The translations under genes were made by a program, and so were the position numbers. A DNA stretch of 64,000 nucleotides from positions 4,320,001 to 4,384,000 of the forward strand of contig CAVWVQ010000003.1 in assembly GCA_963758525.1 (NCBI GenBank), in the 5' to 3' direction. Origin of the DNA: an uncultured Phycisphaerales bacterium. Its GTDB lineage: Bacteria; Planctomycetota; Phycisphaerae; Tepidisphaerales; Tepidisphaeraceae. This document shows positions 3,660-62,702 of the stretch, in pieces (within the stretch, counting starts at the first letter, position 1; each line of letters starts with the position of its first letter). The notes beneath the pieces are model-generated. The model saw only the letters and a list, made by a program, of their open reading frames with translations. It made no database searches and was not told the origin of the DNA.

Positions 3660-3823
3660 ACTTTTAGCTTTTTCATTTTTCACTTCTCATTTTTCATTGC
3701 TGCCCAGCGCACGAGCAAGAAAGCTAAAATGATAAATGATAAATGAAAAAGCTAAAAGTTCGGGGAAGTCGACTCCCCGCTGAACCCTGAACCCTGAATC
3801 CTGAACCCTGAATCCTGAACCCT
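3660..3823. repeat. Inverted pair of 7-mer arrays (TTTTCAT/ATGAAAA-like) followed by a (TGAACCC/TGAATCC)n array
   Basis: TTTTAGCTTTTTCATTTT ... AAATGATAAATGATAAATGAAAAAGCTAAAA; six TGAA(C/T)CC units at 3781-3822. Confidence 0.85.
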
Positions 3824-3929
3824 CACAACCGGGTCGGCCCGGCGGAGTGTCAGAGCCCGACCAAATCATGGCGCGTTGTTGCCGAACCGCCGGGCAAGAT
3901 CGGGCCGGAAGAGCTTACGCACGGCCCGC

Positions 3930-5465
3930 ATGGACCATTCCGTACCCTCCACCAATCTGCCGGATATTTGCGGCTTGGAGTCTGCCGTCGGCGAAGCCAC
4001 GGCGCAGCGAGCCTCGGTATTTCTGCCGGAGAGCGGCGTGGATTTTGCGAGCATCCGCGGCGCTTTTTCGATAGCGCTGCATATGCATCAGCCGCTGATC
4101 CCCGCCGGGGGCGGTGATCTTCGCACCGCCGCAATCATCAGCAATCTGCGGTTCATGCGGGAACATCCGGAGGTGCAGGATGCTCACAACGCGCCGGTTT
4201 TCTTGTGGTGTTACCAGCGCATGGGCGAGTTCATTCCGCAACTGGTGAGGGAGGGCGCGCAGCCGCGGGTGATGCTCGATTATTCGGGATGTCTGCTGCA
4301 CGGGCTGCAGGAGATGGGCGCGCCCGGCGTGATCGAATCGCTGCAGCCGCTGGCTCGGGATCCAGAGCTGCGGCGGTGCGTCGAATGGCTCGGGACGGCC
4401 TGGGGCCATGCGGTTGCGCCGTCGACGCCGGTGCAGGATTTTCGTTTGCACGTGAGCGCGTGGCAGCAACACTTCGCGGCGACGTTCGGGCTTGAAGCGC
4501 TCAGCCGGGTGCGCGGATTTTCGCCGCCGGAGATGGCGCTGCCCAATCATCCGGACTGCTGCTACGAGTTTGTCCGCACGCTCCTCGACCACGGCTATCG
4601 CTGGGTGCTGGTGCAGGAACATTCCATCGAGCGCGCGGACGACGGCGGCAAGATCGACCGGCCGCATGTGCCTCATCGGCTGATCGCGCGCAACTTGCGG
4701 GGCCAATGCCTCAGCATCATCGCCATCATCAAAACGCAGGGGAGCGACACGAAGCTGGTCGGCCAGATGCAGCCGTTTTACGAGGCAAAGGGACTTCCCC
4801 GCGCACCGGTCGCCGGCCGAGAGATACCGCAAATCAGCACGCAGATCGGCGACGGTGAGAACGGCGGGGTGATGATGAATGAGTTCCCCTCCAAGTTCAT
4901 GCAGGTGATGCGCGAAGCCGCCAACTCCGCGACGCCGGCAATGAATGTGACGGAGTATCTGGAGCACTTGGCCGCGATGGGCGTGAGCGAAGTTGATTTG
5001 CCCGCGGCGCGTCCCATTTTTCAGAAGCGACTGTTCGATCGCCTCGAGGCTGAGTCAGGGCGCGATTCATTGCGCCGATTGATTGGCGCGGATGCAGAGC
5101 GGCGGGATGAATCCCGCCCTACGAAGCTCGAACGTGACGGCGGCGAGAGCCTGCCGGGCGTCATCGAGCAGCTTCGCCGGGAAGACAACCGATTCCACAT
5201 GGATGGCGGCAGTTGGACCGGCGACATCTCGTGGGTGCGTGGCTACGAGAACGTGCTGGGCCCGATGGAGGCGGTCAGCGCCCTCTTCTCAGCGAAAATA
5301 TTGCAGCCTGGCGTTTTGCCGTCTGATCCCCGCTATCGCAATGCGCTCTTTCATTTGCTGATCACCCAAACGAGCTGTTTTCGGTATTGGGGCCAGGGAG
5401 TGTGGACGGATTATGCGCGGGAGTTGTGCCGTCGGGCGACGCAACTGCTTTTGGGAGAATCGTGA
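3930..5465 (+). CDS. Glycoside hydrolase family 57-like protein
   Basis: LHMHQP, GFSPPEMAL, GDGENGG and TSCFRYWG motifs; ATG 3930; contains an in-frame REP doublet at ~5054-5122. Confidence 0.88.
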   Translation: MDHSVPSTNLPDICGLESAVGEATAQRASVFLPESGVDFASIRGAFSIALHMHQPLIPAGGGDLRTAAIISNLRFMREHPEVQDAHNAPVFLWCYQRMGEFIPQLVREGAQPRVMLDYSGCLLHGLQEMGAPGVIESLQPLARDPELRRCVEWLGTAWGHAVAPSTPVQDFRLHVSAWQQHFAATFGLEALSRVRGFSPPEMALPNHPDCCYEFVRTLLDHGYRWVLVQEHSIERADDGGKIDRPHVPHRLIARNLRGQCLSIIAIIKTQGSDTKLVGQMQPFYEAKGLPRAPVAGREIPQISTQIGDGENGGVMMNEFPSKFMQVMREAANSATPAMNVTEYLEHLAAMGVSEVDLPAARPIFQKRLFDRLEAESGRDSLRRLIGADAERRDESRPTKLERDGGESLPGVIEQLRREDNRFHMDGGSWTGDISWVRGYENVLGPMEAVSALFSAKILQPGVLPSDPRYRNALFHLLITQTSCFRYWGQGVWTDYARELCRRATQLLLGES

Positions 5466-5548
5466 TTGGCGCCCGATTGTTTCTTCGTCGCCAAAGAACT
5501 ACCGTGTTCCACGAAGCAGCCAACTCCTACCAGAAAGTCGAAATTACC

Positions 5549-5680
5549 ATGGGCGACAGATCACCGAAGGCAGTTCAAAAACAAGCGTCACAGAAGAAAG
5601 CCAAGACCGACAGTGCCGATCAGAAGAAGAAGCAGGACCTGGCGGCCAAAGCCAAAGCGAATATTGGCAAGAAGAAGTAG
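5549..5680 (+). CDS. Small lysine-rich basic protein (43 aa, MGDRSPKAVQKQ...)
   Basis: Clean ORF with K/Q/A-rich composition; resembles small MGDKSPK-type proteins seen in PVC bacteria (from recall). Confidence 0.6.
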   Translation: MGDRSPKAVQKQASQKKAKTDSADQKKKQDLAAKAKANIGKKK

Positions 5681-6132
5681 CGGGAAGCCTTCGCTATTTT
5701 GCGCTCTGCGAATTAGCAGGCAATGCGAGTGATCCGTGCCGCCTGCGCCGTTCGTCGCGGATGTTTTGCAGCCACGTGGTAAACTTCGCGAAGCGCTGGA
5801 AGTCGCTGATGATTGCGAGCGAAGGGACCGCACGTAGACTAAAGGCGTGCCACCAACCAAACCGCCGCTCGACTTCTCCAACCAGATCAACCTCACGAAC
5901 GTCCTGCACGGCATGCGGGTTTTCTGGTTGCCGCTGAGCGTGGCCTTTGGAGCGATAGTGATCATCGGTCTGGTACGCGCTGTATTCTCGCGCCCCCGCT
6001 CACGAGCCCGCGGCCGCTCCTAGCGACGCCGCTGACGTGCGATTGTGTCGAGGCTATTTTAGCCTGCCGAGCATTTTCCGCACATTCATTCGCAACAAGA
6101 CAAAGCCGTTTTACGAAACGAGGCAATGATCG

Positions 6133-8218
6133 ATGGAGAACGGTATGCATTCTGACGGCAGCCCCATGCTCAGCATCTGGTTCGGAAATTTCTTTGAGCC
6201 ATTCTTCAGCGACCGCGAAAGTGTCCGCCGGGGCATCGCCGAGGTGGCCGAACTTGGGTTCAACAGCATCAATCTCGACTCCAAGGCATGGGAGGACTTC
6301 TTCGCGCGCTATCGCGGCGAACCCGCAAGCCCTTACGTCGCGATGCAGGAATTCATGATGCAGGAGGCCGCCGCGCGAGGGTTGGATTACTCGCACCTGG
6401 CTCTGTATCTCTGCGGCGACAACCTCTATCCGACCATTCGCGACGTGCCGCCTGTGCGGGGCGAAGAGCCGATGCTTCCCGACGGCAAACCGATGGGGAC
6501 CTACAAATATTGGTCACCCCGCGCGCAGCAGACGATGGTCGATCACGTGCGCGGCCTGCTCAAGCTGTATCGCAACGGCATGCGGCGTCTGCCCGGCACG
6601 CCGCCGCGCATCGTCATGCAGACGATGTTTGAGCCGATCCCCAAACCGAGCTTCGACGCGGAAGGAAAGCAGCGATATCTGGCGTGGCTCGAAAGACGCT
6701 ATGAAGGCAATATTGCAAAGCTCAATCAACGGTACGGAATTTCCGCGACGGCCTTCGCGCAACTGAAGCCCTGCGAGTATTGGCTGCGCCCGGGGAATTG
6801 AACTGGGTGGATTGCGCGTCCGACCCTGGAAGATTTTGAGAAGCGGACGCCGGACTTTCATCGCTGGATTGACAATCAAACCTATCTGGCTGGCGAGCTG
6901 GAGGAATATCTCGCCACAATGAAGCGGCATTGGCGCGAGCTGGATCCGGAACTCTTCGCCGAACCGGTGCTCCATCAATGGGGCTACTTCTTCAATCCCC
7001 CGGGCCAAACGATGTGGCAGACAGGCCAGCGGGCGCTGGACATCTACCGCTGCGCAGCACACGTCGATGGTGTGTTATTTATCGCGTCTCCGCTGAATGC
7101 CGACAATCGCGCCGATGCGATGGCGCTGAGCGTTGAAGGTTCGATCATGCGCTGCGCGAGCGAGAGTCGGCCGTTCACCGCCGGGCTCTACCTCGGGCGT
7201 CATGTAAACGGCGACATTTACAGCGTCGTGCCTCCCGCCGAAGCGATCGGAACGCTCGTCGCCGCGGGCGCGAAGCGAATGCACAATTACGGCTATAGCG
7301 GTCTTGACGATGGCGGCGTTCTGTTCCGGATGGACCCGGTCTTCAAAGACTCCCTGCGCGGGAAATCGTTGGGCCGCGGACGTAATTCCGCTCCTCGAGC
7401 AGCCGCGCCGCCGTGAGGTTGCGATTTTGTTCCCCGCCGAGATGAGTCTGTATGAACCGCTCGAAGTCGATGTTGAAGGCCGGCATCGGATGGATTTGCT
7501 GGGCTGGTATTCCCAGTTCGCGGATCTCGGGTGGCATGTCGATATCCTGCATCCGGCCCAGGTCGCCGCTGGCACGCTGGCGCAGTACAAGCATCTGGTC
7601 GTTCCGCATGATTCACTCTACGACCTGGGCGACAACGCGGCGCTCGAAGCCGCGGTCAGCAAATTTGTGACTGAAGGAGGCACGCTGCTGCACGGGCCGC
7701 ACTGCGAATTGGCGCGGCGAGCGCTTGGCATCGAGGAAGCGGCCTGCGAATTCGACTGCATCCAGTGGGAGGAAGAGGTGATTCCGCACGGCTGGTCCAC
7801 CGTCGCGTTTCGCGGCGGAAAGGCGCTGGGAACGTACATCCGGACCGGCGATCGCGCGATCGCCCAAACCGACGTCGGCGCCGGACGCGTTCTCTCATTC
7901 GGCTTTCAATACGGCTACGCCTATTCGCGCCGCACGATGCCGATTGTTCCGCCCGCGTACGGCCGGCGTGAGATGCATCCGGTGGTGCTGCTGAAGGAAA
8001 CTCCCATCGCGGCGCTCATCGGCTCATCCCCGCTGCTGCCCATCGCGCCGGTCAAGGGTCTGGAGTTCGCACGATTTGGCAATCGTCTTGTCCTCGTCAA
8101 CCATCGGTCCAGCCCATTGGACATCAGCAAAATGAGCGCAGCGCGCACATTGCCGCAAGTACCATCTGCTCCCGGCTGGCTCGCCGCGCACTCCGCGACG
8201 TACATCGAATTGGCGTGA
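6133..8218 (+). CDS. Beta-galactosidase-like (GH42-type) glycoside hydrolase, split by apparent frameshifts at ~6789, ~6815 and ~7357
   Basis: ORFs 6133..6801, 6919..7416 and 7304..8218 join into one protein; WLERRY-GNIAKLNQRYG motif and C-terminal trimerisation-like domain. Confidence 0.72.
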
Positions 8219-8247
8219 GACGGGGCAGCGCGGGGTTCGCGAGCCGC

Positions 8248-8277
8248 TCGCAGCCGCGGATGTACATCCGCGGCTTC
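8248..8277. repeat. 30-bp palindromic repeat, identical copy at 19285-19314
   Basis: TCGCAGCCGCGGATGTACATCCGCGGCTTC; lies between convergent genes and may act as a terminator. Confidence 0.8.
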
Positions 8278-8296
8278 TTTCCTGTTGGATCTCTTC

Positions 8297-10027
8297 TTAC
8301 GGGCCCGCAATCCGGAACGTCTGTTCCACCGGCTTGGCGGACTGAATGAGCGGGGCGGTCGAGCGTCCCCATTGCCAAGCCACGACAGTCACCAATATCG
8401 GATACTTGCTGCGGGGCGGGATTCGGGTGAGGGTGAGCGTGCCATGGTCGTCCACTTCGGCCGGCCCTTCGCGAACATAGTAGTAGACGGGGATGCGGGC
8501 GCTGGACGTTGCCTGCAGCTTGATCGGCACAGCGGAGTGCGCGGCCGGCTGATCCGGGATCTTCGGGAAATCGATCTCCTGCGGTTTGCCTTTCGTGTTC
8601 GTTAGCGGGAATCGCAATTCCGCCTGCTGAACCATTTTCTTGTACTTGCCATCCCCGGGATAAGTGAGGAAAAACCACATGTCGCTGGAGCGTTTGGGGT
8701 TATTGAAGCCGACACGATCGAACCGAATCACGAACGTATCCAGATCTTTTTGCAGCACGGGCCCGCAGATGGGTGAGATCCTCATTTTGTCGGATTCGTT
8801 TTGAGGATGATCGATCGGGTCATTCTGTACAACCAGTTTGACGCCTTCGCTCAGCCAGCCGTCCCATTCCGAGGGTTTGTCATCCGCGGTCTGCGGAACC
8901 TTGTCCCAGAAGCCGCCCGACAGCTTGAACGTCATGCCATCATCTATTGGCTGAAATTGCAGGTGAACCATCGCATGATCCGGGCGAGGCGGGCTGAGGC
9001 CTTCCCGTTGTCTGTAGCCGATCAGGACGTTGGGCTGACCGCGAAATGCGCTTTGGAAGTTCTCGATCGCTTTGGCCATCTCTTCATCGAAAGCCCAGAA
9101 GGAGCGGTCTTTCTTGCCGTTGTATTTGGAGACGGGACCGGCGGCGGCCGACGGAGGCGCGTTGAGGTGCCACACTTCGTAGCGCCAGCCGTCCATCTCC
9201 GCATCCATTGGGACAAGCTTGACCGGACCGCTCGAGACATCTCCCGCGGACAACCGGTATTGCGCGGCCTTGCGAAGATACATCCCGATCAACGCGATCT
9301 TCTCTTTCGATGCGCTGAAATGGCCGTCGCCCGGCTCGACAACCTGCGTGAACGCGGCATCCGGATGCTTCTGATAAAAGTCACCCTTCAGCCCGGCATA
9401 CCAGCCGCTCTCAAGATTTCCCTGAATCTCAAACTCGCCCTTGGTAGTGAGGCCGGGCACTTCATCGACGCTCCGATCGCCCCAGTACTTCGAACCGAAA
9501 TACGGCCATTGGCCGCTGATGGAAAGCACGCAGAGCACGCGTTTGGGATTCCACGCCGCCACGTCCCATCCCCAGCCCGCCGTCGCCGAGTGCCCTGTCG
9601 GCACCAGGGGAGCGAACTCAATTTCCCCGTAGCCCGACTGGCTCGCGAGCGTCTTCAGGAGTTTCTCGAGAATTGCTCCTTCACCCTTGTCAAAGCGAAA
9701 GCTGTCGGTTCCCATCGCCGGCGCGATCCAGATCTCGGCGAATCCCAGATCTGTGAGCGTTTTGCGAAAATCCGGATCCTGGAAAATCTGCTCCTCCTGC
9801 ATGTTTTGATCGGCGATCACCACCGCCCGCACACGCTGACAAATCTCGGGAATCCAGAGGAATGCGCGGGGATGGTCCTTCGTCTCGGGAGAAATTGCCT
9901 CGTCAATCGGGGCGGACCATTGGTAAACAGCTCCGTGAGCGGAGGAGAAGTCAGCCGAAAAACAGACCAACAGAATCCCGAGCCAACCAAGCGAATCGAG
10001 TTGGAGGTTTCTCGATTGAGTGCGCAT
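8297..10027 (-). CDS. Secreted hypothetical protein, possible alpha/beta hydrolase
   Basis: 576-aa ORF with signal peptide and TGHSATA (GxSxx nucleophile-like) motif. Confidence 0.75.
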   Translation of the reverse strand: MRTQSRNLQLDSLGWLGILLVCFSADFSSAHGAVYQWSAPIDEAISPETKDHPRAFLWIPEICQRVRAVVIADQNMQEEQIFQDPDFRKTLTDLGFAEIWIAPAMGTDSFRFDKGEGAILEKLLKTLASQSGYGEIEFAPLVPTGHSATAGWGWDVAAWNPKRVLCVLSISGQWPYFGSKYWGDRSVDEVPGLTTKGEFEIQGNLESGWYAGLKGDFYQKHPDAAFTQVVEPGDGHFSASKEKIALIGMYLRKAAQYRLSAGDVSSGPVKLVPMDAEMDGWRYEVWHLNAPPSAAAGPVSKYNGKKDRSFWAFDEEMAKAIENFQSAFRGQPNVLIGYRQREGLSPPRPDHAMVHLQFQPIDDGMTFKLSGGFWDKVPQTADDKPSEWDGWLSEGVKLVVQNDPIDHPQNESDKMRISPICGPVLQKDLDTFVIRFDRVGFNNPKRSSDMWFFLTYPGDGKYKKMVQQAELRFPLTNTKGKPQEIDFPKIPDQPAAHSAVPIKLQATSSARIPVYYYVREGPAEVDDHGTLTLTRIPPRSKYPILVTVVAWQWGRSTAPLIQSAKPVEQTFRIAGP

Positions 10028-10028
10028 G

Positions 10029-10520
10029 TTATTGATTGGCGTTGACGAGTATCGGGGATTGCTGCGAATCGGCGGGGCAAACTGGTGTCACCGTACTCCA
10101 ATACTTCGCCTGTCCTGGGCTGACCCAATCGGTCCCGCCAGGCTTTTTCACCATGATCTGATCGGAGGCGGATTGCAGCGCAGAGAGACGGGCTTGCCAA
10201 TTATCCGGGAGCGAATTGATCCCCTCCCGCACCTGGTCCGGAAGTGCTTCCAGGTAGCCGCAGAACAGCTTCGATCCGCAGCGGAAAACTCTTGCGCGAT
10301 AGGCCTGCTTGCCGTCGTGGGCAAACGGAAATGCCGTGAGGCTGTTGGAGGTAAACCATGTCTTTCCGTCGTCGTCTGAGAAGAATTCTTTGTTTGCCGG
10401 CGCGGGCGGCGTGTTGCTGGAAACTTGGCGGATGATGGAGAATAAGCTCAGCAGCAGAGCCGCGCCTGCAACCGCGGCCGCTGGAGTCGAATTCTTTCCT
10501 AGTGATTCGCGCAGATTCAT
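10029..10520 (-). CDS. Membrane-anchored hypothetical protein (paralog 1)
   Basis: N-terminal TM helix; FFSDDDGKTWF, AYRARVFRCG, FCGYLE; highly similar to the neighbouring gene. Confidence 0.8.
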   Translation of the reverse strand: MNLRESLGKNSTPAAAVAGAALLLSLFSIIRQVSSNTPPAPANKEFFSDDDGKTWFTSNSLTAFPFAHDGKQAYRARVFRCGSKLFCGYLEALPDQVREGINSLPDNWQARLSALQSASDQIMVKKPGGTDWVSPGQAKYWSTVTPVCPADSQQSPILVNANQ

Positions 10521-10536
10521 TGTGGTTCGTGGTGTA

Positions 10537-11022: not shown

Positions 11023-11091
11023 ACACCGATTCCGGCAAAGCCACGGGTGAGAACCAATGCTTTCAAAGCACGGCAAATCTTGTCAAATCGC

Positions 11092-41554: not shown

Positions 41555-41640
41555 ATAGAGCGAAGGCATGAAGGGGAAGGCACGAAGGCACGGAGGCAGT
41601 CGCCGCGGCGACTAAACTGCGGCACGAAGGGGAGGAAGGC
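41555..41640. repeat. GGCACGAA-octamer palindromic element (core type A)
   Basis: GGCACGAAGGCACGGAGGCAGTCGCCGCGGCGACTAAACTGCGGCACGAAGGGGAGGAAGG; the same core occurs twice in imuA and once in imuB. Confidence 0.85.
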
Positions 41641-41797
41641 GAATCGACTGATGCGCCTTGGCGCAGGTTAGCCGCGACGCGCAGCGGAGCGCGTATTCGA
41701 ACACCAAACGCCGCCATTTCACCGCTTGCCCCAATTCCACGTGTACGCGTCCGTTGCCAGTCGTTCCAATCGGGTTCTGAGCAAGCGGACACAATTT

Positions 41798-43904: not shown

Positions 43905-44082
43905 AAGGGTGAGGGTTCAGGGTTCTGGGGTCAGGGTTCAGGGGTAGACTCGCCAGGGTCAGCACAGGGTTCAGATCAGTATGATAGTTTCTTGAGCCGT
44001 TCGCGCTCTCTGCGGCGCTGATATCCGCGCTCCACCGGAACCCTGAACTCCTTAACCCTGAACCCTGAACCCTGAACCCTGA
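43905..44082. repeat. Inverted pair of 7-mer arrays (GGGTTCA)n / (TGAACCC)n
   Basis: GAGGGTTCAGGGTTCTGGGGTCAGGGTTCAGGG ... CCCTGAACCCTGAACCCTGAACCCTGA. Confidence 0.85.
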
Positions 44083-44175
44083 CGCCTCACAAGGGTTTTT
44101 CCCCTTCCATCGAAGCTTGACGCGTCTATGATGCGGTGAAAGCTCGAATGCTTGCCAACTCCAGCGGGAGCCGTG

Positions 44176-50986: not shown

Positions 50987-51910
50987 GGGGAAACGGCGAG
51001 CATGCTCGCCGGCTACACGAAGAGATGCGCAGATGCGAAAAAACCCGGAATCCGGTCCCGTCGTTCCTCTTTTCCCCGTGTAGCCGGTGGGCATGCCCAC
51101 CGGTTTCCCCCTTCCGACCTGTCGTCTCCGCCCCTGAAAATTCACGGCGAGCATGCCTGTCGGCTACACTGAAGAGAGAATGGTCCGCTGGTATCACGCG
51201 ATCTTCAGCGCTTACGGATTCTGGCTTCCGAACGATCCGCGGGGGTCGTGGTCGGACTTTGTGGGGTCGTGGGAGCTGTTGAAATTTGGGTGCGCAACCA
51301 CGACGGGCGAGAAGCGGTCGCTCGCGGCGGTAGCGCATGACGCGGATGTGCGCCGGAGGGCGAAATTAGCGCTGAAATATCCGCCGGTGCGGTTCAACGA
51401 CGCCCAGCGTCTCGCGATCGGAGCAGGCATCACCCAGGCCTGCGCCGAATCGAAGATCATTCTTCACGCCTGTGCGATTGGCTTCGATCACGTTCACATC
51501 GTCGCCGCCCGACATACGAAACGCGTGGAGCAGATCGTCGGACAATTGAAGGGCCGATCCACGCAGCACATGGGGGCGGCTGGATGTCATCCGATGCAGG
51601 CGGCGCTCCCGTCGACACGACCGCTGCCTACACCGTGGTCCGAGGGGTGCTGGTCCGTCTTTATCAATGACCACGAGCAACTCAGATGTGCGATCAAATA
51701 CGTCGAGCGCCATCCGCAAAAGGAAGGCCTCCCAGCGCAACGATGGACCTTCGTCCGTTCCGTCTCCTACGTGTAGCCGGTGGGCATGCCCACCGTTTTC
51801 TTTGGGTGTGGAAGACGTCGGACGGGGGGAAACGGCGAGCATGCTCGCCGGCTACACAAAAATACTTGCTGATTTCCCACTCTTCGTTTAGCCGGCGGGC
51901 ATGCCCGCCG
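50987..51910. repeat. Six GTAG-type REP copies flanking the RAYT gene
   Basis: GTGTAGCCGGTGGGCATGCCCACCG or the inverse CGGCGAGCATGCTCGCCGGCTACAC at ~50994, 51078, 51145, 51771, 51833, 51887. Confidence 0.9.
51180..51776 (+). mobile_element. REP-associated tyrosine transposase (RAYT, IS200/IS605 Y1 superfamily)
   Basis: YGFWLPNDPRGSWS, HUH motif DHVHI, catalytic Tyr in IKYVERHP; its stop codon is the TAG of a REP. Confidence 0.85.
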
Positions 51911-51945
51911 TGGTCCTTCGCGTTGAAAATCTTTTCACCGCCGTA

Positions 51946-51994: not shown

Positions 51995-52975
51995 ATGAGC
52001 CATGCGATTTGTTTCCTGTCACGACGGCAAGCTTCAGGTGTTAAGTCCGCAGGAGTTCCGCGCCCGACCGCCCAGGCTTTCACCACCGGCTTGGCACCGC
52101 TGGACGCACTGGCGCCAGGAGGGGCGTTTGCCCGGGGAGCGGTGCATGAAATTCTCACCGCCCCCGAGCATGGCGCCGCCCTTTTTTTTGCGACGCTCCT
52201 GGCCGGAGCGTCGGCAGCGCCGCCGGGAGGCACGGGGGATGGGGAAGGCACGAAGGCAGTCGCCGCGGCGACTAAACTGCGGCACCAAGGCACAGGGGGA
52301 AGGATGGAGGAGGGATTCAGAGAGGGTTCAGGGTTCAGGGTTCAGACTTCAGCACAAAAATCCCCTTCCTCCCCTTCGTGCCGCAGTTTAGTCGCCGCGG
52401 CGACTGCCTCTGTGCCTTCGTGCCTTCCCCCTGATCCCCCTTCGTGCCTTGGTGCCTCCGTGCCTTCGTGCCGGCGATTCATCTGCTGGTGCGATCCCAC
52501 GCGGGAAATTTATCCGCCGGCGTTGGCGAGTCATGGCATCGCATTGACGCATTTATTTCTTCTGCATCCGAACGGCCCGCGCGATCTGCTCTGGGCGATT
52601 TCTGAATCTTTGCGATGCAAGGGGGTCGCCGCCGTCGTGGCCGCTCCGCCACGTCTCTCGCGCGTCATGGCGCGCCGTCTTCAGCTTTCCGCCGAGCGCG
52701 GCGGCGGCGTCGGATTGCTGCTGCGCAGCACCAACGCGCCGGGAATTGATTGCTATGCCGCCGCCACCCGCTGGCTGGTGCGCCCCCAGGCTGGGGAGCG
52801 CACCGTGCAACGATGGAACGTTCAACTGATTCACGGTCATGGAGGATGTATCGGACAGACCGTCATCCTGGAGGTAAGCCGTGAAAACCATTCTGTGCGT
52901 GCACTTGAATCGCTGGCCAATCGACCGATGGAGAAGAGCACAGGACAAACTTCGGGCGTTGCCAAGGCCTCGTGA
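51995..52975 (+). CDS. imuA: ImuA (RecA-like mutagenesis protein) with an in-frame hairpin insertion (~52221-52476)
   Basis: TGLAPLDAL.PGG..RGAVHEI, WCDP..IYPPAL, DLLWA..ESLRC, ARRLQLSAERGG, AAATRW. Confidence 0.88.
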   Translation: MSHAICFLSRRQASGVKSAGVPRPTAQAFTTGLAPLDALAPGGAFARGAVHEILTAPEHGAALFFATLLAGASAAPPGGTGDGEGTKAVAAATKLRHQGTGGRMEEGFREGSGFRVQTSAQKSPSSPSCRSLVAAATASVPSCLPPDPPSCLGASVPSCRRFICWCDPTREIYPPALASHGIALTHLFLLHPNGPRDLLWAISESLRCKGVAAVVAAPPRLSRVMARRLQLSAERGGGVGLLLRSTNAPGIDCYAAATRWLVRPQAGERTVQRWNVQLIHGHGGCIGQTVILEVSRENHSVRALESLANRPMEKSTGQTSGVAKAS

Positions 52976-54873
52976 TTGCCAAGCCGTTCCTCCTCAAAAA
53001 CAAATTCAAAACTTCCGGAACGCCACCCCCTCTCCCGGTACTCCGGGAGAGGGCAGGGGTGAGGGTGATTTCGAGCACCAACGGCACTTGACGTTCCAAA
53101 TCACCCTCACCCCAACCCTCTCCCGGAGTACCAGGAGAGGGGACAATCAAGCAGCCTCTCTCCTCAATACACATTCTTCCCAAGTTCCCCTGGTCATCGT
53201 TCGCACCGTCGCCGATCGGCAGGTGATTGTTTCTCTGTGCGACCTGGCCGCCCAGCGGGGAATTCGCCGGGGGATGACGCTCACGCAGGCCCGGGCGCTG
53301 TGCGCCGATGTCGAGCATGCCGAACACGACCCGCCGGCTGACCGTCGGGCGCTGGAGGCGCTGGGTCGCTGGCTCACGCGTTTTACGCCGACTGTGGCGC
53401 TGGACGCCAGTGAATCCGCCGACGGCATTTTCCTCGACATCACCGGCTGCGACCGGCTGTTTGGAAGCGTTGAAAATATTGTCCATCAGGTGATCGACGC
53501 CTTGGCTCGCCTGCGCATCAGCGCCCGCGTCGCAGTTGCTCCCACGCCTGGGGCGGCCTGGGCCTTGGCTGTCGCGGGGGAAAACGGCGATATCGCGTCC
53601 ATCGACACGCTGGCGGATATGCTTGCGCCGCTTCCTCCTGCCGCATTGCGCATCAGCGACGATCTTGCCGCGGCATTGCATCACCTGGGGCTGGTCCGCA
53701 TCCATCAGGTGATCGACCTTCCCCGCGGCCTGCTCCCGGTACGTTTCGGTCCCGAATTGCTTTTGCGCATTGATCAGGCACTGGGCCGAATCTCCGAGCC
53801 GCTGGTTCCGCTCCAATATCTTCCCCCCATCATTGCGCGTATGGATTTTGACGGCCGAGTCTCTTCGCTCGAAGCCATCTGGGCAGTCTTTCAGCAATTG
53901 ATCGGGCAGATCATCGCGCAGCTGACGCATCGCGGCTGCGGCGCTCGCCGGCTCGATATCGAGTTGCTCCATCTCCACGAGCCACCGGTCCGCAAAAGCA
54001 TTTTTCTCTCCCGTCCCTCGCGCGATGCGGTGAATTTGTTTAATTTATTTCGGTGTGGGATGGAGGAGGGGAGGGAAGGGACAAAGGGACAGAGGGACAA
54101 AGGGACAAAGGGAAGACAAGAAGGCACGAAGGCAGTCGTGGCGACTGCCTCCGTGCCTTCGTGCCTCTCTTCCCCTCCCCCTTTGTCCCTTTCCCCTTCC
54201 CTCTCCGACGACGGTTACAGCGGCATGATCCTCCATGTCCCCTTATTTGAGCCAATTTCCGATCAGCAACTCGGCCTTCTCGGCCAGGAAGAATATGACG
54301 GGCAACTCGAGCTCGATCGTCTCATCGAACGGCTGCGGATTCGCCTGGGAGAACAGACCGTCATGAGCACCCAATTAACCGAATCCTACATCCCCGAGCG
54401 CGCCTGGAGCGCCTGCGCGAGAAAGCAGGGCAGTAAAGCAGTTGAAAGGAAAGAAGAATTCCCACTCTAAAGCATCCCCTTCCTCCCCTTCGTGCCGCAG
54501 TTTAGTCGCCGCGGCGACTGCCTTCGTGCCTTGGTGCCTTCCCCCTGATTCCCCTTCGTCCCTTGGTCCCTTTGTCCCTTTGTCCCTTCCTCCTCCCATC
54601 CGTCCCCTTCACTTATTCCTTCATCCCATCGAAATCCGCGTGATGGTCAGCCCGTCGGATGATGCCGAAGGGCAGCCCGCCGCGTTTACGCATGAGGGGC
54701 AGGTCCGCACGATCGTTCACGCCGTCGGCCCCGAGCGTATTGCCGGGCGGTGGTGGGACGGCCACGACAAAACCCGCGATTACTTCGACGTGGAGGACGC
54801 CAGTGCCAGAAGGTTCTGGCTCTTCCGCGTGCGGGAAACCGGGCGGTGGTATTTGCATGGAGGGTTTGAGTGA
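52881..54873 (+). CDS. imuB: ImuB (inactive Y-family polymerase), three repeat insertions; frameshift at ~54415
   Basis: GIRRGMTLTQARAL, RFTPTV, DGIFLDITGC..LFG, LIERLRIRLG, PERAW; C-terminal RPLHL..GPERIAGRWW..RDYF..FWLFR..WYLHG lies in ORF 54442..54873. Confidence 0.88.
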
Positions 54874-54879
54874 AGAAGC

Positions 54880-55146
54880 CCGGGGAGAAGTCAGGAGCAA
54901 GAAGCCAGAAGTAAGAAGCAGGAATTGCAAATTGAGGATTGCAAATTGCAAAATTGAAGGGCGGCAATTTGAGATTTGAGATATTTGAGATTTGAAATAT
55001 TTGAGTCCTGGTGACCCAAAGGAGTAAGAACCATAAGGAGACAAAAAAGCCCCGTCCCCCAAAATTTGCATTTTGCAATCCTCAATTTGCATTTTGCAAT
55101 TCCCTCTTCTGACTCCTGGCTTCTGGCTCCTGGCTTCTGACTCCCT
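54880..55146. repeat. Composite inverted 7-mer arrays (AGAAGCC/GGCTTCT, GCAAATT/AATTTGC, ATTTGAG) between imuB and dnaE2
   Basis: Left arm 54885-54956 is the reverse complement of right arm 55062-55145; a further copy of the left arm lies inside dnaE2 at ~55636-55722. Confidence 0.85.
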
Positions 55147-55159
55147 ACTTCTCCAAAAA

Positions 55160-58100
55160 ATGCCCGAAGCTCCCAACCCCAAACTTCGCGAAGCTCCGCC
55201 GCCAGCATTGAAATCGGTGGCTCCCTCCTCCTGCGCCTATGCGGAGCTGGACGTCAAAACCAACTTCTCTTTTCTCCGCGGCGCTTCGCATGCCGACGAA
55301 CTGGTCTATCGTGCCGCGGAGCTGGGATATCGCGCGATCGGCATCACCGACATCAACTCTCTCGCCGGTGTCGTTCGTGCCCATGACGCGGCCAAGGAAG
55401 TCGGCCTGAAGCTTCTCGTCGGCTCCCGCCTCACGTTTTCCGACGCTCCCGACCTGCTCGTCTGGGCCAGCAATCGCGCGGGATACGCCAGGCTTTGCAG
55501 AATGCTAACCCTGGGAAAACGCCGGACCGAAAAAGGAGAATGCGATTTAAGGCTGGAGGATTTTTTGAATGATAATGAGGGGTTGGTGGCGGCCGTGGAG
55601 GGGGATCAAAGAGAGGCACGAAGGGAAGGAAGGAAGCAGGAGTCAGGAGCCAGAAGCCAGAAGTCAGAAGAGGAAACCGAAGATTGCAAATTGAGGATTG
55701 CAAATTGCAAATTGCAAATTGAAGAACACCTCCTCTCCCCTTCCTCCCCCTTCGTGCCGCAGCAAGGTCCCGCGCGCGCGGGATGCCTTCGTGCCTCCGT
55801 GCCTGCATTAATTTCCCTCCGCTCCTCCCTCGGCTCGCGTCTCTCGCTGATTGCCGCCTGCTCTTATGGCTCGGACGATTCCTCACATCTGCGCCGGTTG
55901 GCGGAGCTGTCGCGCCAATGCCATATTCCTCTTCTGGCGACCAATGCGGTTCACTATCACGACCCGTCCCGCCGGCGGCTGCAGGACGTGCTCACGTGCG
56001 TTCGCCATGGCTGCACCATCGACGAAGCGGGCTTTCGTCTGTTTCCAAACGGCGAACGCTATCTCAAATCGCCGCTGCAGATGCATCGGCTCTTTGCCGA
56101 CTATCCGCAGGCGCTGCGGCGGGGGATCGAGATTGCCGAGCAATGCGACTTTCAACTCGATTCGCTACGCTATGAATATCCCGACGAACTGGTTCCGGCC
56201 GGGAAATCTCCCATCGAACATCTGGGCAATCTCGCCTGGGCCGGGGCGGCTGAGCACTATCCAGCCGGCATTCCTCAAAAAGTGCGCGATCTGCTCAACC
56301 ACGAGCTGACGCTGATCGCACAACTCAAATTCGAAGCCTATTTTCTCACCGTCCATGATCTGGTGTGCTACGCGCGATCGCGCGGCATCCTCTGTCAGGG
56401 GCGCGGATCGGCCGCCAATTCCGCGGTCTGTTTCTGCATCGGGGTCACGTCGGTCAACCCTGTCGAAGTCGATTTGCTTTTCGAGCGGTTTATCAGTGCC
56501 GCCCGCAATGAGCCGCCGGACATTGACATCGATTTCGAACACGAGCGCCGCGAGGAGGTGATTCAATACATCTACGAAAAGTATGGCCGCGAGCGCGCCG
56601 GGATGACCGCCGAGGTAATCACCTATCGCGGTCGCTCCGCGGTCCGCGACGTGGGCAAAGCGATGGGCCTCACGCTTGACATGGTCGACACGATGGCCTC
56701 GAAGCTCGACTGGTGGCATCGCGGCGTGCTGAGCGAGCCGCAACTGCAGGAGTGCGGCCTGGACCCCGCGGATCGGACGATTCGTCGAGTCATTGCGCTT
56801 GCCACCGAGTTGCTGGGTTTTCCCCGCCACTTGAGCCAGCACGTCGGAGGGATGGTGATGACGCGCGGACCGTTGTGCGAACTGGTGCCGATTGAAAATG
56901 CGAGCATGCCGGATCGAACTGTCATTGAGTGGGATAAGAATGACATTGACTCGCTGGGGATTTTGAAAGTTGATGTGCTGGCGTTGGGAATGCTGACGTG
57001 TATTTCGAAGGCGCTTAAGTTGATCAGTTGGACAAATGTCAGAGACGAAGGGACAAAGGGACAAAGGGACGAAGGGGCGGAGGGGGGAAGGGACGAAGGG
57101 ACAGAGGGACGAAGGGACAAAGGGGCGGAGGGGGGAAGGGACGAAGGGACAGAGGGACGAAGAGACAAAGGGGAATGTGGGGAGGGGGATAAAGAGGCGA
57201 TATCTGATGCACAAAGTCAATACGTTTCGGGATCTGGTTGCTTGGCAACGAGGGATGGAACTGGCGCAAACGACGTATTCAGTGATCCTGAGGATGCCAC
57301 AAGCGGAGAGGTTTCGTCTTTTCAACCAGATGTGGCGGGCCGCGTACTCGATCCCGTCCAACATCGCGGAGGGATACGCCCGACAATCCCGCCCGGATTA
57401 TTTGAAGTTTCTGCGGATTGCTCGCGGTTCACTGGCAGAGCTGTCTACTCAAGTCGAATTAGCAATCAATCTTCGAATTATTACTCCGTGTGCACAACTG
57501 CAGAACCTGGAGAATCTGCTGATGGAGGAGGATCGAATTCTACAGGCGCTGATTATGAGCCTCCAACGCAAAACGCGACAGGAAGAGCAAATGAGGGGAG
57601 GGGCAAAGGGACAAAGGGACTAAGGGACGGAGGGACAGAGGGTAAGGCAAATCCCTCCGCCCCTTTGTCCCTGTGTCCCTCTGTCCCTTCGTCCCTCCCT
57701 TCCTCTGCCCCTTCGTCCCTTCTCCCTCCCTTGTCCCTCTCCTCCTTCCGTCCCACCGATCCCGCTGTCTACCAAATGATGTCGAATGCCGACACGGTCG
57801 GCGTTTTCCAGATTGAGAGCCGGGCGCAGATGTCCATGCTGCCGCGGCTGCGACCCAACTGCTTTTACGATCTCGTGATCGAAGTCGCGATCGTGCGCCC
57901 AGGCCCAATTCAGGGAAACATGGTTCACCCCTATTTGCGACGCCGTTGCGGCGAAGAAAAAGTCACATTCCCCAATGAAAAACTGCGCGAAGTGTTGAGC
58001 AAAACCCTCGGGGTTCCGCTTTTTCAGGAACAGGCGATGCGCATTGCAATGGTCGCGGCGGGTTTTACCGCCGACGAGGCGGACAAGTTGCCGCGCCATG

Positions 58101-59468
58101 GCAGCATGGCGTCGGACCAGCGCGCTGGAGGCATTTCATCAGAAAATCGTCCAAGGCATGCTTGCCAATGGGTACGAACAGGAATTCGCCGAACAGTGTT
58201 TCGATCAGATCAAGGGGTTCGGCGAATATGGATTTCCCGAGAGTCACGCCGCGTCGTTTGCGCTGCTGGTGTATGTCTCAGCCTGGATCAAACGTTACCA
58301 TCCCGCGGCCTTCGCGGCGGCGCTGATCAACAGCCAGCCGATGGGTTTTTATATGCCTGCACAAATCGTGCGCGATGCCAAAGAGCATGGGGTGGAAGTG
58401 CTTCCCGTGGATGTGAACCGGAGCCAATGGGATTGCACATTGGAGGGGGGAAGGGACGAAGGGACAGAGGGACATAGGGACGAAGGGACGAAGGGACAAA
58501 GGGACAAAGAGGTAGAGGGACAAAGGGACGAAGGGACAGAGGGACATAGGGACAAATGTGCAGAGGGAACAGATGGAGGGATGAAAGGACAAAGTGCGAA
58601 GATGACATGGGGGGCCGGGGGACCAGTATTGCGATTGGGGTTCCGTCTCATCAAGGGATTTCGCGAAACGCATGCACAACAGATTGCCGAAGCCCGTGCA
58701 AAATGGAAATGTTTTATTTCCATCGCGCAATTGCATCGGACGACGCGGCTGCCTGTCGCATCGTTGCGCATTCTTGCTGAAGCCGATGCGTTTGGATCAT
58801 TGGGAATCACCCGCCGTGAGGCGTTGTGGGAGGTGCTGGAGTTGAAGGATGAGGAGGCAGGGTTGTTTGAAGGGGGGGAGGGAGAAGGGACAAAGGGACA
58901 GAGGGACAAAGGGACAAAGTGCAAAGACGCCATTCCCGCTGCCCCTTTGTCCCTTCGTCCCTTCGTCCCTTCGTCCCTTCTCCCTCCCCTGCCCGCTGCC
59001 CCTTTGTCCCTTTGTCCCTCAGTCCCTTCGTCCCTTCTCCCTCCCATGCCCCTCGGCCAGGAAGTCATGACCGATTACGCGACGGCCGGCCTTTCGCTCA
59101 AGCAACATCCTGTTGCGCTGTTGCGCGATGAACTGCAGCGCAGAAAGATCATTCGTTCCATAGACCTGGATCCGTTACGCAATGGGCGATGGGTTAGCGT
59201 CGCGGGATTGGTGCTGATCCGGCAGCGGCCTGGGACGGCATCAGGCATCGTCTTCGAAACCCTTGAAGACGAAACCGGCATCGTGAATCTGATTGTGAAG
59301 CCGGATATTTACGAGCGCTACCGCCGCGCCGCCCGGCATGCGGGACTGCTCCAGGCCGAGGGATATCTGCAGAAACAGGGACAGGTCGTTCACGTGGTCG
59401 CCAAACGGCTCTTCGACTTGAGCGATTTGCTGCAAGGCCACGAATTTCAGTCGCGGGATTTTCATTAG
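55160..59468 (+). CDS. dnaE2: Error-prone DNA polymerase DnaE2 (ImuC), four in-frame repeat insertions; frameshift at ~58092
   Basis: YAEL..KTNFSFLRGAS PHP domain, QGRGSAANS, PPDIDIDFEH, HLSQHVGG, KVDVLALGML, GVFQIESRAQ, YGFPESHA, RQRPGTASG, C-terminal SRDFH. Confidence 0.93.
57207..57623 (+). CDS. Four-helix-bundle protein (23S rRNA intervening-sequence protein / Avd-like family), nested in the +1 frame inside dnaE2
   Basis: TFRDLVAWQRGMEL..Y..MP..ERF.L..QMWRAAYSIPSNIAEGYAR...FLRIARGSLAELSTQ; AAAGAGG RBS upstream of the ATG. Confidence 0.9.
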   Translation: MHKVNTFRDLVAWQRGMELAQTTYSVILRMPQAERFRLFNQMWRAAYSIPSNIAEGYARQSRPDYLKFLRIARGSLAELSTQVELAINLRIITPCAQLQNLENLLMEEDRILQALIMSLQRKTRQEEQMRGGAKGQRD

Positions 59469-59474
59469 AAGGAG

Positions 59475-59670
59475 AGAAACGTGAAGACGTGAAGACGTGA
59501 AACGTGAAACGTGAAACGTGAAACGTGAAACGTGAAGACGTGACAATGCGAATCCGCCCTCTCACGTTTCACGTCTTCACGTTTCAGGTCCCGTTCCACG
59601 TTCCAATCACCGGCACTGACCGCCCTCTCACGTCTTCACGTCTTCACCCCTCCCGTCACGTTCCACGTTC
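59475..59670. repeat. Inverted pair of (GTGAAAC/GTGAAGAC)n arrays downstream of dnaE2
   Basis: About 9 ACGTGAA(G/A) units followed by TCACGTTTCACGTCTTCAC arrays. Confidence 0.88.
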
Positions 59671-59792
59671 CAATCACCAGTGCCCGTCTTTATCGCCCCC
59701 GTTGCCGGCAACTTATGTGGACTTGGGCATCTGACGATGAACCCGATACAGTCTGGTCCGGCGTGGCGTTTGCAGGCAATCTATAATTCATA

Positions 59793-60899
59793 ATGACCGC
59801 GTTCGTGGAGTCGTGTGTCGTCACCGCAGCCGATTCGGCAGCGGCGGCGGTGCGCAAGTTGCGCGGACGGCCGCATGCCAGCAAATTGCTGCGCCTTTTG
59901 GCCCACAAGAAGAACATTCTGATCACCACCCATCGGCACCCCGACCCCGATGCCCTTGCCAGCGGGGTCGCCATGATGGCGCTCCTGTCGCAGAAACTGC
60001 CCGCCAGCGTGGTCAGCATGTCGGTCAAGGGGCAGATGGCCAGCGGGCTCAATGATGCGTTTGTGCGTTACACGGACCTCAAGCTTGTGCCATGGGATGA
60101 GGCCGCGCTCCCCAATTATGACGCGATCATCCTTCTCGATACGCAGCCCGCGTTTGCCTTCAGCCCGCTGCCGGTCGGGACAACGCCGCTGGCGGTCATC
60201 GATCATCATCGCGGGCGGGGACGGCGGCCCAACGTTCCGTTCTGCGACATTCGCCCCGAAGTGGGCGCTGCGGGCTCGATCGTCTTCAGCTACTTCATGG
60301 AGCTGGAAGTTCCCATCAAACCCGATCTGGCCGCAACACTGCTGTATGGCATCGAGTCCGACCTGGCGGGCGCCGCGGGGTTTCCCGGCGAACTCGATAA
60401 CATCGCCCTCTCGAGCCTCACGCTGATCGCCGATCCGCGCAAGCTCTATCGCATGCGCTACGTCGATCTGCCGCGCAGCTACTACATCGCTTACGCAAAT
60501 GGCCTGAACCATGCCGTGGTGTATGACAACCTGCTGATCTCCCACCTCGAATCGATCGAATCGCTCGAAACCCCGGCGGTGATCGCGGACTTCCTGCTCC
60601 GGCTCGATAAAGTGGATTGGACGATGGTCAGCGCCGTTCACGATGCGAAGCTGATCGTCAGCATTCGCACCAGCAACAGCAAAATCTCCGCCGCCGACAT
60701 TGCCCGGCGGCTCGTTCGCAAAGTAGGGGAGGGCGGCGGTCATCGCGCCAAAGCCGGCGCCTACATCAATATGGACACTGCCAATCCCGCCGAGATCGAA
60801 AAGTATCGGTCGCTCCTTCGCAAAAGGTTTTTGAGGCTATTGCATACCAGCTCCACCCGGGCGCAGAAACTGGTGCCTTTGCCGGGGAAGGCCGAGTGA
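59793..60899 (+). CDS. DHH/DHHA1 family phosphoesterase (NrnA-like)
   Basis: HRHPDPDAL, LDT, IDHH, GIESD, GGGHRAKAG. Confidence 0.92.
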   Translation: MTAFVESCVVTAADSAAAAVRKLRGRPHASKLLRLLAHKKNILITTHRHPDPDALASGVAMMALLSQKLPASVVSMSVKGQMASGLNDAFVRYTDLKLVPWDEAALPNYDAIILLDTQPAFAFSPLPVGTTPLAVIDHHRGRGRRPNVPFCDIRPEVGAAGSIVFSYFMELEVPIKPDLAATLLYGIESDLAGAAGFPGELDNIALSSLTLIADPRKLYRMRYVDLPRSYYIAYANGLNHAVVYDNLLISHLESIESLETPAVIADFLLRLDKVDWTMVSAVHDAKLIVSIRTSNSKISAADIARRLVRKVGEGGGHRAKAGAYINMDTANPAEIEKYRSLLRKRFLRLLHTSSTRAQKLVPLPGKAE

Positions 60900-60928
60900 C
60901 GAAATCCGGATGAGATTGCGCAATTCGG

Positions 60929-62557
60929 CTATCCCCCCAGCGAACGCGTGACGATCTGCTGCGCCTGTTCAACGATCATCTGCAAGTGCTCCGCGCTCTG
61001 AAAGCTCTCGGCGTAGATCTTGTAAATATTTTCGGTGCCGGAGGGACGCGCGGCGAACCAGCCGGACGCCGTCGTTACCTTGAGCCCTCCGATGGACGCG
61101 TGGTTGCCAGGGGCTTGAGTGAGCTTGGCGGTGATCGTTTCTCCGGCCAATTCGATTGCGGTAACGGCTTGGGGGGTCAGCTTTTTAAACGCGGCTTTTT
61201 GTGCGGGGGTGGCTGGAGCGTCGATGCGGGTGTAGTAGGGCGTGCCGAATCGTTGGGTCAGTTCGGAGTAGTGCTGGCCTGGATCTTTGCCGGTGCGGGC
61301 GGTGATCTCGGCGGCAAGCAGATTGAGGATGATTCCGTCCTTGTCGGTGGACCAGACGGTGCCGTCGGTGCGGAGGAAGCTCGCTCCGGCGCTTTCTTCG
61401 CCGCCGAAGCAGAATCGGCCGGTGTAGAGGCCGTCGGCAAACCACTTGAAGCCGACGGGAACCTCGCAGAGCGTGCGATGCAGATCGGCAACGACGCGAT
61501 CGATCATGCTGCTGCTCACCAGCGTTTTGCCCACGGCAGCGGACGTGGGCCAGTGCGGACGATTCTGCAGGAGATACTGGATCGCAACGGCAAGGTAATG
61601 ATTGGGGTTCATCAGGCCGGCAGATGGTGTGACGATGCCATGGCGATCCGAGTCGGGATCGTTGCCGAAGGCGACCTGATAGTCGTCCTTCAGTTTCACA
61701 AGACCGGCCATCGCGTAAGGGCTTGAGCAATCCATGCGGATCTTGCCGTCGTGATCGACGGTCATGAAGGAGAACGTCGGGTCGATCTTTGAATTGACGA
61801 TCGCCAGGTCAATTCTGTAGCGGTCGCGGATCGGCCCCCAATACGTGACCGAGGCTCCGCCCAGAGGATCGACGCCCAGCTTGACGCCGGAAGAACGAAT
61901 CGCTGGCAGGTCGACGACATTCCGCAGGTCTTCAACATAAGGCGTGACAAAGTCATATCGCTCGATCGACGAGACGTCTGAAGTGCGCTTCACATCGCGA
62001 TTGGATTGCTGGAGGAGCGCGTTGGCCCGGTCCTGGACCCAATTCGTGACATCGGCGTCGGCTGGTCCGCCGTTCGGCGGGTTGTACTTGAATCCGCCAT
62101 CGGCCGGCGGATTGTGCGACGGGGTGATGATGATTCCATCCGCCAGCCCCGCGGTTTTCCCGCGGTTGTGGGTCAGTATCGCGTGTGAAATCACGGGAGT
62201 CGGCGTCGGCTCGTCGTCGCGCGCGACGCGGACACTCACGCCATTGGCCGCCAGCACTTCCAGCGCCGTTCGCTGCGCCGGCGCCGAGAGCGCGTGGGTG
62301 TCTTTCCCCATCATCACCGGGCCGTCGATTCCCCTGGATTTGCGGTATTCGCAGATTGCCTGCGAGATCGCCAGGATGTGCGCTTCGGTGAACGTGCCGT
62401 CGAGCGACGTGCCGCGATGGCCGCTGGTACCGAAGCTCACGCGCTGCGCGGGATCGGACATGTCGGGCAACGTTTGGTAATACTTTCGATCGAGCGCAGC
62501 AACGTCGATGAGAAGACTTGCGGGAGCGAGCTTACCGGCGAGAGGTGAGAGGGGCAT
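60929..62557 (-). CDS. pgm: Phosphoglucomutase (alpha-D-glucose-1,6-bisphosphate-dependent)
   Basis: [32 protein letters not shown]. Confidence 0.96.
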
Positions 62558-62619
62558 TGAAGCTCCGGGTTCAGGTTTAAGAACTCATCGTTGGGACGTC
62601 CGCTAATTTTTCCTTTTTC

Positions 62620-62702
62620 GGTTGCCATTTTTCATTTGTCATTGGTTTTCCGCCAGACCAGAGAATGAAAAATCTAAAATCTAAAATGAAAAATGAAAAA
62701 GT
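62620..62702. repeat. Inverted 7-mer arrays (TTTTCAT / ATGAAAA-ATCTAAA)
   Basis: CCATTTTTCATTTGTCATT ... AATGAAAAATCTAAAATCTAAAATGAAAAATGAAAAA; same family as 3660-3760. Confidence 0.75.

Follow-up and report, generated by a model that had tools for sequence, protein, structure and literature searches.

Four-helix-bundle (FHB) proteins of the family PF05635/TIGR02436 are known from intervening sequences of 23S rRNA, such as that of Coxiella burnetii with S23p, in which a stem encloses the gene and tandem heptamers precede its start codon (PMC4990558). Here, we analyse a 64,000-nucleotide stretch of DNA ("the window", C3:4320001-4384000) from the 6.47-Mb, 6-contig genome of an uncultured Phycisphaerales bacterium, which is 91% complete. 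In this window, tandem arrays of 7- and 8-nucleotide units ("words") crowd the imuA-imuB-dnaE2 genes, and one pair of arrays encloses a FHB gene nested in dnaE2. The resulting cassette shares the terminal stem with the rRNA intervening sequences (z -9.1) but differs from them in lying in dnaE2, with relatives in or between protein genes, in having 8-mer arms and in leaving the host frame open. Moreover, the FHB gene is conserved here, while the open reading frame of the Coxiella intervening sequence is reported to be decaying (PMC4990558).

Other described systems resemble the cassette in part. The ShiLan domain of actinophage methylases is likewise a patchily distributed, stop-free in-frame insertion that contains an out-of-frame gene and no splicing motifs. 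However, its passenger is an HNH endonuclease, which explains homing (PMC11855218), whereas the FHB protein has no known catalytic site, and, unlike ShiLan, the FHB cassette is bounded by tandem arrays and its word is spread genome-wide. Intragenic REPs and Rickettsia palindromic elements are also hairpins that are translated in frame in dnaE2 and other repair genes; they are short gene-free palindromes, while the elements described here are tandem arrays, one class of which carries a whole gene (PMC3733652). REP-RAYT systems (REPtrons) also place a small gene between inverted repeats and have dispersed cognate gene-less hairpins, but RAYT is a tyrosine transposase, while FHB matches no transposase family and its repeats lack GTAG/CGTC tags (PMC3733652). 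Avd of diversity-generating retroelements shares the fold and is an RNA-binding pentamer with equivalent base pockets (10.1101/2023.10.23.563531); by contrast, the FHB cassettes have no adjacent reverse transcriptase and no template/variable repeat. Finally, Xanthomonas and Nostoc have dispersed heptamer arrays, in Xanthomonas often as convergent inverted pairs; these are tied to G-quadruplexes, and the accessible part of the paper names no gene family (PMC4692102). The accessible part of PMC12926913 contained nothing relevant. Thus, each ingredient has a precedent, and the combination and a residue-repeat code were not found in the literature; no description of dnaE2-nested FHB genes was found either, in literature that included few subscription papers.

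On balance, we propose that the arrays are probably the arms or footprints of mobile, host-transcribed cassettes, whose Avd-like protein putatively binds its own word and promotes copying by an enzyme acting in trans. Nowhere else in the genome are independent arrays as dense as at the imuA-imuB-dnaE2 locus (window 51995-59468); a denser locus at C3 ~926 kb is a single higher-order repeat and was excluded from the ranking. The initial annotation, made from the letters of the window, did not see that most arrays here lie inside imuA-imuB-dnaE2, nor that dnaE2 contains the FHB cassette and keeps its own frame open across it. Between 52,200 and 59,100, most arrays are contained in coding sequence, and the inserts translate in frame, save for one frameshift each in imuB and dnaE2. 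Arrays were called with TRF. The locus contains the following features:

51995-52975, + strand: imuA (NF033429, E 1e-20, under the curated cut-off)
52236-52476, + strand: in-frame GGCACGAA hairpin within imuA, its loop containing a GGGTTCA head (z -7.6)
52881-54873, + strand: imuB, in two frames with the shift near 54450 inside an insert (PF00817)
54060-54205, + strand: in-frame composite GGGACAAA/GGCACGAA hairpin within imuB (z -8.7)
54420-54600, + strand: imuB insert with GGCACGAA and GGGACAAA tail arrays (TRF, sequence)
54880-55150, + strand: nested 7-mer hairpin in the imuB/dnaE2 gap, heads of AGAAGCC, GCAAATT and ATTTGAG followed by tails of AATTTGC and CTTCTGG (z -10.4)
55160-59468, + strand: dnaE2, error-prone DNA polymerase (NF004225, 945.7 bits, cut-off 939), with a frameshift near 58090, downstream of the cassette
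55600-55812, + strand: composite PHP-domain insert, in frame, in which GGCACGAA encloses AGAAGCC and GCAAATT heads (sequence)
57040-57775, + strand: FHB cassette, with the FHB gene between a GGGAC(A/G)(A/G)A head array and a tail array (z -9.1 for 57035-57775)
57207-57623, + strand: FHB gene for a 138-aa protein, +1 relative to the dnaE2 frame (PF05635 E 8e-30, TIGR02436 E 6e-31)
58445-58570, + strand: second loop of dnaE2, with a single GGGACGAA head array in frame (sequence)
58860-59045, + strand: third loop of dnaE2, with a GGGACAAA hairpin in frame (z -8.8 for 58880-59020)

The product of the FHB gene in the cassette at 57040-57775 matches PF05635 with 103.6 bits (cut-off 33.8) and TIGR02436 with 106.8 bits (cut-off 24), and the gene is preceded by a purine-rich Shine-Dalgarno-like motif. 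The cassette lies in the loop joining the NTPase and finger domains of DnaE2, and the polymerase frame crosses all of it without a stop; the landmarks of dnaE2 are 798 nt apart with the window cassette compared with 102-138 nt at empty sites. In the host-frame protein (P0001), no intein family was detected, and the only matches to the passenger were PF05635 and a bAvd-like family, neither of them a homing endonuclease family.

Searched with the host-frame peptide, 141 related genomes yielded 19 nested FHB genes. To control for the bias of this query, dnaE2 loci were fetched with an empty-site query, and 110 loci in 104 genomes were scored: 60 are empty, 28 have gene-less inserts (27 in frame), 18 have a FHB gene, and the far side was unscorable in four, one of which runs into a FHB gene on another contig, giving 19 FHB-bearing loci. 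An unpublished genome (G004) enters denominators only, and no claim depends on it. Hence, the comparison of filled and empty sites suggested initially can be made at a single dnaE2 site, which is known in filled, gene-less and empty states. All nested FHB genes are on the sense strand of their host. Both sides are present in 14 FHB-bearing loci; 13 of these are in frame and stop-free, one has a frameshift in the flank, and 13 of the 14 cassettes are divisible by three in length.

The host frame is stop-free in all 19 nested FHB genes, while synonymous resampling predicts ~3.2 stops in each. A T never precedes an AA, AG or GA codon in these genes (0/343), compared with 311/1265 (25%) elsewhere. 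Intergenic FHB genes (n=14) have 0-6 host-frame stops, a range biased low because most were found by the host-frame query. At the same time, the FHB frame is under purifying selection with near-saturated third positions: close nested pairs have FHB identities of 77-79% and host-frame identities of 29-43%, and the host-frame peptides of the 19 nested genes are 20-31% identical to that of the window. In genome G121, the FHB gene has an internal stop and the host frame is nonetheless open. A Shine-Dalgarno-like motif precedes 18 of 24 listed starts (duplicates included). Thus, in dnaE2 both frames are under selection, which points to both being translated, with the insert as a tolerated loop of the polymerase. 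In the nested clade, almost all 8-mer heads are free of T and their tails free of A, and therefore no stop codon is possible in any frame; such stop-incapable words suit residence inside genes.

If the cassette were instead removed from RNA like an intron or an rRNA intervening sequence, with the host message rejoined, the ties of the family to 23S rRNA intervening sequences and the arms that close a stem around the gene would find a ready explanation. Splicing would, however, release the host frame from selection, contrary to the stop-free frames and the lengths divisible by three, and the Coxiella intervening sequence is excised with the rRNA left fragmented (PMC4990558); we consider splicing very improbable and suggest that the cassette in dnaE2 would be translated as a loop. 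Frameshifts in several genes of the genome could also indicate that the arrays arose as artefacts in assembling a long-read metagenome bin. This is refuted by independent assemblies, because the 19 genomes and the public records have a like architecture with other words, and its probability is negligible. Several few-contig genomes also have short dnaE2 frames, which hints that the frameshifts in imuB and dnaE2 of the window may be long-read errors.

Nested FHB genes extend beyond this set. Further cases are L359, of another family, and the public records L199, L200, L202 and L279, and the closest named public records of the cassette protein are from Tepidisphaeraceae and Phycisphaerales. In L199, a full FHB cassette occupies the second dnaE2 loop, where the window has the single GGGACGAA head. 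A profile of the host-frame peptide matched 617 protein clusters; among the best 150, 70 of at least 300 residues were scanned and include DnaE2, Eco57I/MmeI-type and other methyltransferases, histidine kinases, an amidohydrolase and an intein, while 22 of the 70 have no Pfam match. Many of them have repeat-derived peptides on either side. A word-indexed protein search with the same peptide recovered, out of 435 candidates, a single protein, that of the window itself, and the HMM search did better. FHB cassettes with 7-mer words were also observed nested in frame in methyltransferase-like genes (L074, L169, L170, L217, L365, L373 and L380), and L052 and L073 have double cassettes in dnaE2, with a complete gene-less hairpin before the FHB gene and a second hairpin after it.

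The arrays themselves are abundant and ordered. TRF and sequence located all unit arrays listed initially at their positions in the window, where the named units form exact doublets that were absent from all 50 shuffles. GGGACAAA occurs in 22 copies (1.8 expected) and GGCACGAA in 18 (3.0 expected), the latter yet without an exact doublet. Genome-wide, with at least 3 copies and a score of at least 40, there are 285 arrays of period 7 and 290 of period 8, and 10 and 28 of periods 6 and 9, respectively. The pairing of a head array with a reverse-complement tail, proposed from the window, holds in the genome-wide scan: 354 of 861 period-7/8 arrays belong to 197 inverted pairs, compared with 43±6 (maximum 57) in 100 runs in which units were shuffled among positions. 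Within the window, the array at 3781 is a single tail, and those at 52323, 54968 (ATTTGAG), 41560 and 58450 are single heads. The purine-rich arm leads in almost every family, in 45:0 cases for GGCACGAA, 32:0 for GGGTTCA and 28:0 for GAATGAC, with the opposite polarity in the ATGAAAA family (0:6), and at some sites arms of separate families are nested within each other.

Tail arms reproduce the irregularities of their head arms, and irregular arm motifs recur at many sites, up to 80 (for instance, one GGGTTCA arm motif in 80 copies), which disfavours de novo slippage from a single unit. By contrast, the spacers of gene-less hairpins differ from site to site (45 listed examples in two families), and only the arms and a few cores recur. 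A miniature inverted-repeat transposable element with a conserved core is rejected because gene-less copies have no conserved internal sequence.

The genome has 8 PF05635 matches, 7 of them above the cut-off. For 6 of these 8 FHB genes an array is found no more than 300 bases away, compared with 5.8% of 3000 random sites, as expected from the suggested co-localisation, and degenerate arrays are visible by eye at the remaining two. The words at these genes are GGGTTCA, AGAAGCC, GGGACAAA, GGAACGT/GGTGATT, GAATGAC and AATAGTG. Unit type also tracks the protein, in that flank similarity climbs from 0.05 to 0.60 with protein identity. The initial idea that the empty hairpins are derivatives or footprints of FHB elements is therefore partly supported, by enrichment and pairing; because the spacers are site-specific, simple internal deletion is not supported. 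No cognate FHB gene was found for GGCACGAA, GCAAATT, ATTTGAG or ATGAAAA within this 91%-complete genome. None of the 6 RVT_1 (reverse transcriptase) matches in the genome is near a FHB gene, and none of its 23 Y1-transposase matches is tied to the cassettes. Three FHB genes seem frameshifted or truncated (G000:C3:86416, C2:13691 and C3:4532839). The 8-mer CGCGAAGA family encloses a gene of the GxxExxY nuclease family rather than a FHB gene; GxxExxY (PF13366) genes with flanking 8-10-mer arrays are found at G000:C3:275451, C3:2087930, C3:1855542 and C5:57920, which suggests a parallel system with a nuclease-family cargo.

The correspondence between protein and word is most marked at two residues. 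Of 228 FHB loci, 41 were dropped for want of both flanks, clear periodicity or the motif, leaving 187. In these, once overall identity is accounted for, columns 56 and 64 best predict flank similarity among distant pairs (r 0.156 and 0.139, compared with a mean of 0.004 and sd of 0.029 over columns). Column 56 is the residue after NIAEG and column 64 an aromatic residue eight later, and both flank the helix 2-3 turn in the model of the window FHB (pLDDT 91). Gln56 goes with AGT in 29 of 35 cases and Tyr56 with AGG/GGG in 47 of 58; as residue pairs, Gln-Phe corresponds to AGT and Tyr-Tyr to AGG/GGG. The FHB of the window is of the Tyr type. Disjoint nearest discordant pairs support the association (22:3 and 33:5), and it persists at a clustering identity of 62% (median p 8e-7 to 2e-4). 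In the 8-mer clade, His, Tyr and Phe match GCGAC, GG(C/G)A and GAGAC, respectively, in 20 of 21 cases, and the same code is seen in 5/5 later-found loci (L199, L200, L202, L279 and L359). Genomes with a His-type nested FHB have at least 12 GCGACG(A/G)A triplet matches in 7/7 cases compared with 4/134 others; because kin among them are not independent, a Fisher test overstates this difference. The Tyr-type word follows the resident FHB less tidily. Thus, each FHB lineage carries its own word, and the word is spread through the genome where the cognate FHB is present.

Cassette and host gene have different histories. FHB presence is scattered across the DnaE2 tree. When groups named from one tree were tested on the other, approximately unbiased (AU) tests rejected 3/3 FHB clades on the DnaE2 tree (p-AU 0.007, 0.0002 and 0.0003) and 3/6 DnaE2 clades on the FHB tree (p-AU 6e-8, 9e-11 and 0.02). 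Because the two trees reject each other's clades, the cassette moves. The conflict fits recurrent re-entry, arm-to-arm replacement at the same loop or segment recombination. The nested cassettes share with ShiLan a host frame that is stop-free across an out-of-frame ORF and a distribution discordant with the host tree.

Several observations weigh against a mobile, word-specific cassette. The FHB tree is compatible with the other three DnaE2 clades, and much of the inheritance is therefore vertical. No target-site duplication was seen between filled and empty dnaE2 loops, though these genomes are too diverged for a firm negative, and no catalytic motif was seen. The window's own imuB (~54450) and dnaE2 (~58090) are frameshifted, as is the cassette flank in G102, and in L201 part of the finger domain is missing past the cassette. 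Because unrelated palindromes (28 gene-less inserts) also occupy the same dnaE2 loop, this loop attracts or tolerates many elements. The residue-word association is weaker when clustered at 58% identity (median p 0.005-0.24), and a test of independent pairs on well-supported branches yielded only 2-5 pairs and was not significant. Finally, GGCACGAA is the commonest word here and common in G096, G100, G101 and G103, and no cognate nested FHB was found for it.

Some of these observations would suit a passive passenger, that is, a single old insertion in a tolerant loop of dnaE2 that was inherited vertically, often deleted between its arms and sometimes recombined, with the code reflecting shared ancestry. 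The compatible host clades and the few independent pairs are in line with this, intragenic REPs in dnaE2 are known (PMC3733652), and a single clade (96/99) unites all 19 nested FHBs and 2 intergenic ones; its members have a shortened loop between helices 3 and 4 and words of 8 or 9 nucleotides. A passenger accounts poorly for the purifying selection on the FHB frame, for residue 56, which changes state 19-31 times on the best tree and still follows the word, and for the genome-wide presence of a word tracking the resident FHB type. We therefore regard it as rather improbable and retain a mobile cassette.

How might such a cassette work? The model of the window FHB has four helices and resembles 2GSC (TM 0.83) and Avd (TM 0.77; 4DWL, 8UB7), while Avd profile models score below their cut-off on it. 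Since 2GSC and 2RLD have five chains each, FHB would by analogy with 2GSC and Avd form a homopentamer. In the complex of Avd with RNA, flipped-out bases occupy crevices at which protomers adjoin (10.1101/2023.10.23.563531), and because of this structure and the fold matches, nucleic acid binding by FHB is plausible. In the mechanism that we envisage, a FHB pentamer would bind several units of a single-stranded arm via the helix 2-3 turn. The FHB gene would have no promoter of its own and be expressed by host transcription; by analogy with the many bacteria in which imuA-imuB-dnaE2 is LexA-regulated (PMC6511836), transcription of the host genes may be damage-induced and nesting may link FHB expression to damage. 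An enzyme of the host, or one acting in trans, would then copy bound arms into new hairpin-tolerant sites, either together with the gene or alone; candidates are DnaE2, through error-prone gap synthesis, and a reverse transcriptase in trans.

The long and stable stems would also serve an RNA regulator that works for the host, in which FHB binds arrays in transcripts, its own included, and gates RNase III cleavage of the stems, while the arrays spread through slippage, fold-back copying and recombination and co-evolve with their binder. RNase III cleaves the heptamer-bearing Coxiella intervening sequence (PMC4990558), the residue-word code is equally compatible with this, and tail arms echoing the irregularities of head arms fit as well. 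However, a regulator poorly explains tree incongruence at one site, two occupied dnaE2 loops and the far-flung recurrence of arm motifs, and cutting dnaE2 mRNA would destroy a frame kept open by selection. We hold a regulator to be unlikely. A more specific form of the mobile-cassette model, in which FHBs are a large family of programmable repeat readers whose two turn residues set a 7-9-base word and whose pentamers recruit a host polymerase, here damage-induced DnaE2, to copy arms and entire cassettes into hairpin sites, is a tentative possibility. If true, it would describe a mobile element without transposase or nuclease and the source of the heptamer-repeat excess in bacteria.

More broadly, bacterial genomes have long been noted to contain too many 7-mer repeats, and the data link this excess to an orphan protein family; a FHB that, as is likely, helps to spread its own word would explain it. 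The residue-to-word code predicts the binding target of each FHB protein and, if it holds, makes FHB pentamers candidate small, retargetable binders of short repeats. Finally, a whole gene is kept out of frame within a mutator polymerase across many genera, where annotation pipelines would show one long protein.

Array density is 0.45 per kb in dnaE2 and 0.51 in the 3 kb upstream, compared with 0.15 downstream and 0.22 at dnaE1 loci. A general weakness of C-family polymerase genes for arrays is disfavoured, because in the same 15 genomes dnaE1 has 8 arrays in 57 kb and dnaE2 26 in 50 kb, 8 of the 26 being from the window's own dnaE2. In-frame arrays are present in further genes, which, judged by eye from their translations, we take to encode ValRS, PheS, PurL, RadA, RarA, RimO, NadA and Mfd. 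Outside imuA-imuB-dnaE2, the window contains these arrays:

3655-3765, no strand: gene-less intergenic hairpin, TTTTCAT arm then ATGAAAA arm, reversed polarity (z -5.8)
3780-3823, + strand: single TGAACCC tail array (TRF, sequence)
41560-41640, + strand: single GGCACGAA-type head, core identical to that of the imuA insert; no hairpin (41555-41645, z +0.4)
43905-44082, no strand: gene-less GGGTTCA/TGAACCC hairpin upstream of a Hsp20-Lon pair (z -6.5 for 43905-44085)
59470-59680, + strand: GTGAAAC head and duplicated tail, immediately past the dnaE2 stop (z -5.0 for 59470-59610)
62595-62710, no strand: gene-less TTTTCAT/ATGAAAA hairpin, reversed polarity (z -2.2)

Other repeat elements were observed close by. 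Directly upstream of imuA (50995-51915) lies a REPtron-like unit with an ORF of the Y1 transposase family (51153-51776) between GTAG-tagged palindromes. A non-tandem CCCTCTCCC-type palindrome is in frame within imuB (53020-53145, z -16.6), with similar ones in dnaE2 loops of G005 and G154. In G024, dnaE1 (L187) has an intein-like 461-residue insertion starting with Cys. The higher-order tandem array at G000:C3:925600-927200 (~1.5 kb) is built from AGAAGCC-family arms and is either a real expansion or an assembly artefact. At 36 of 43 low-GC FHB loci, the neighbouring genes are co-directional; in L361, an intergenic FHB with T-containing 8-mer arms lies directly upstream of another gene, the start of which resembles dinB.

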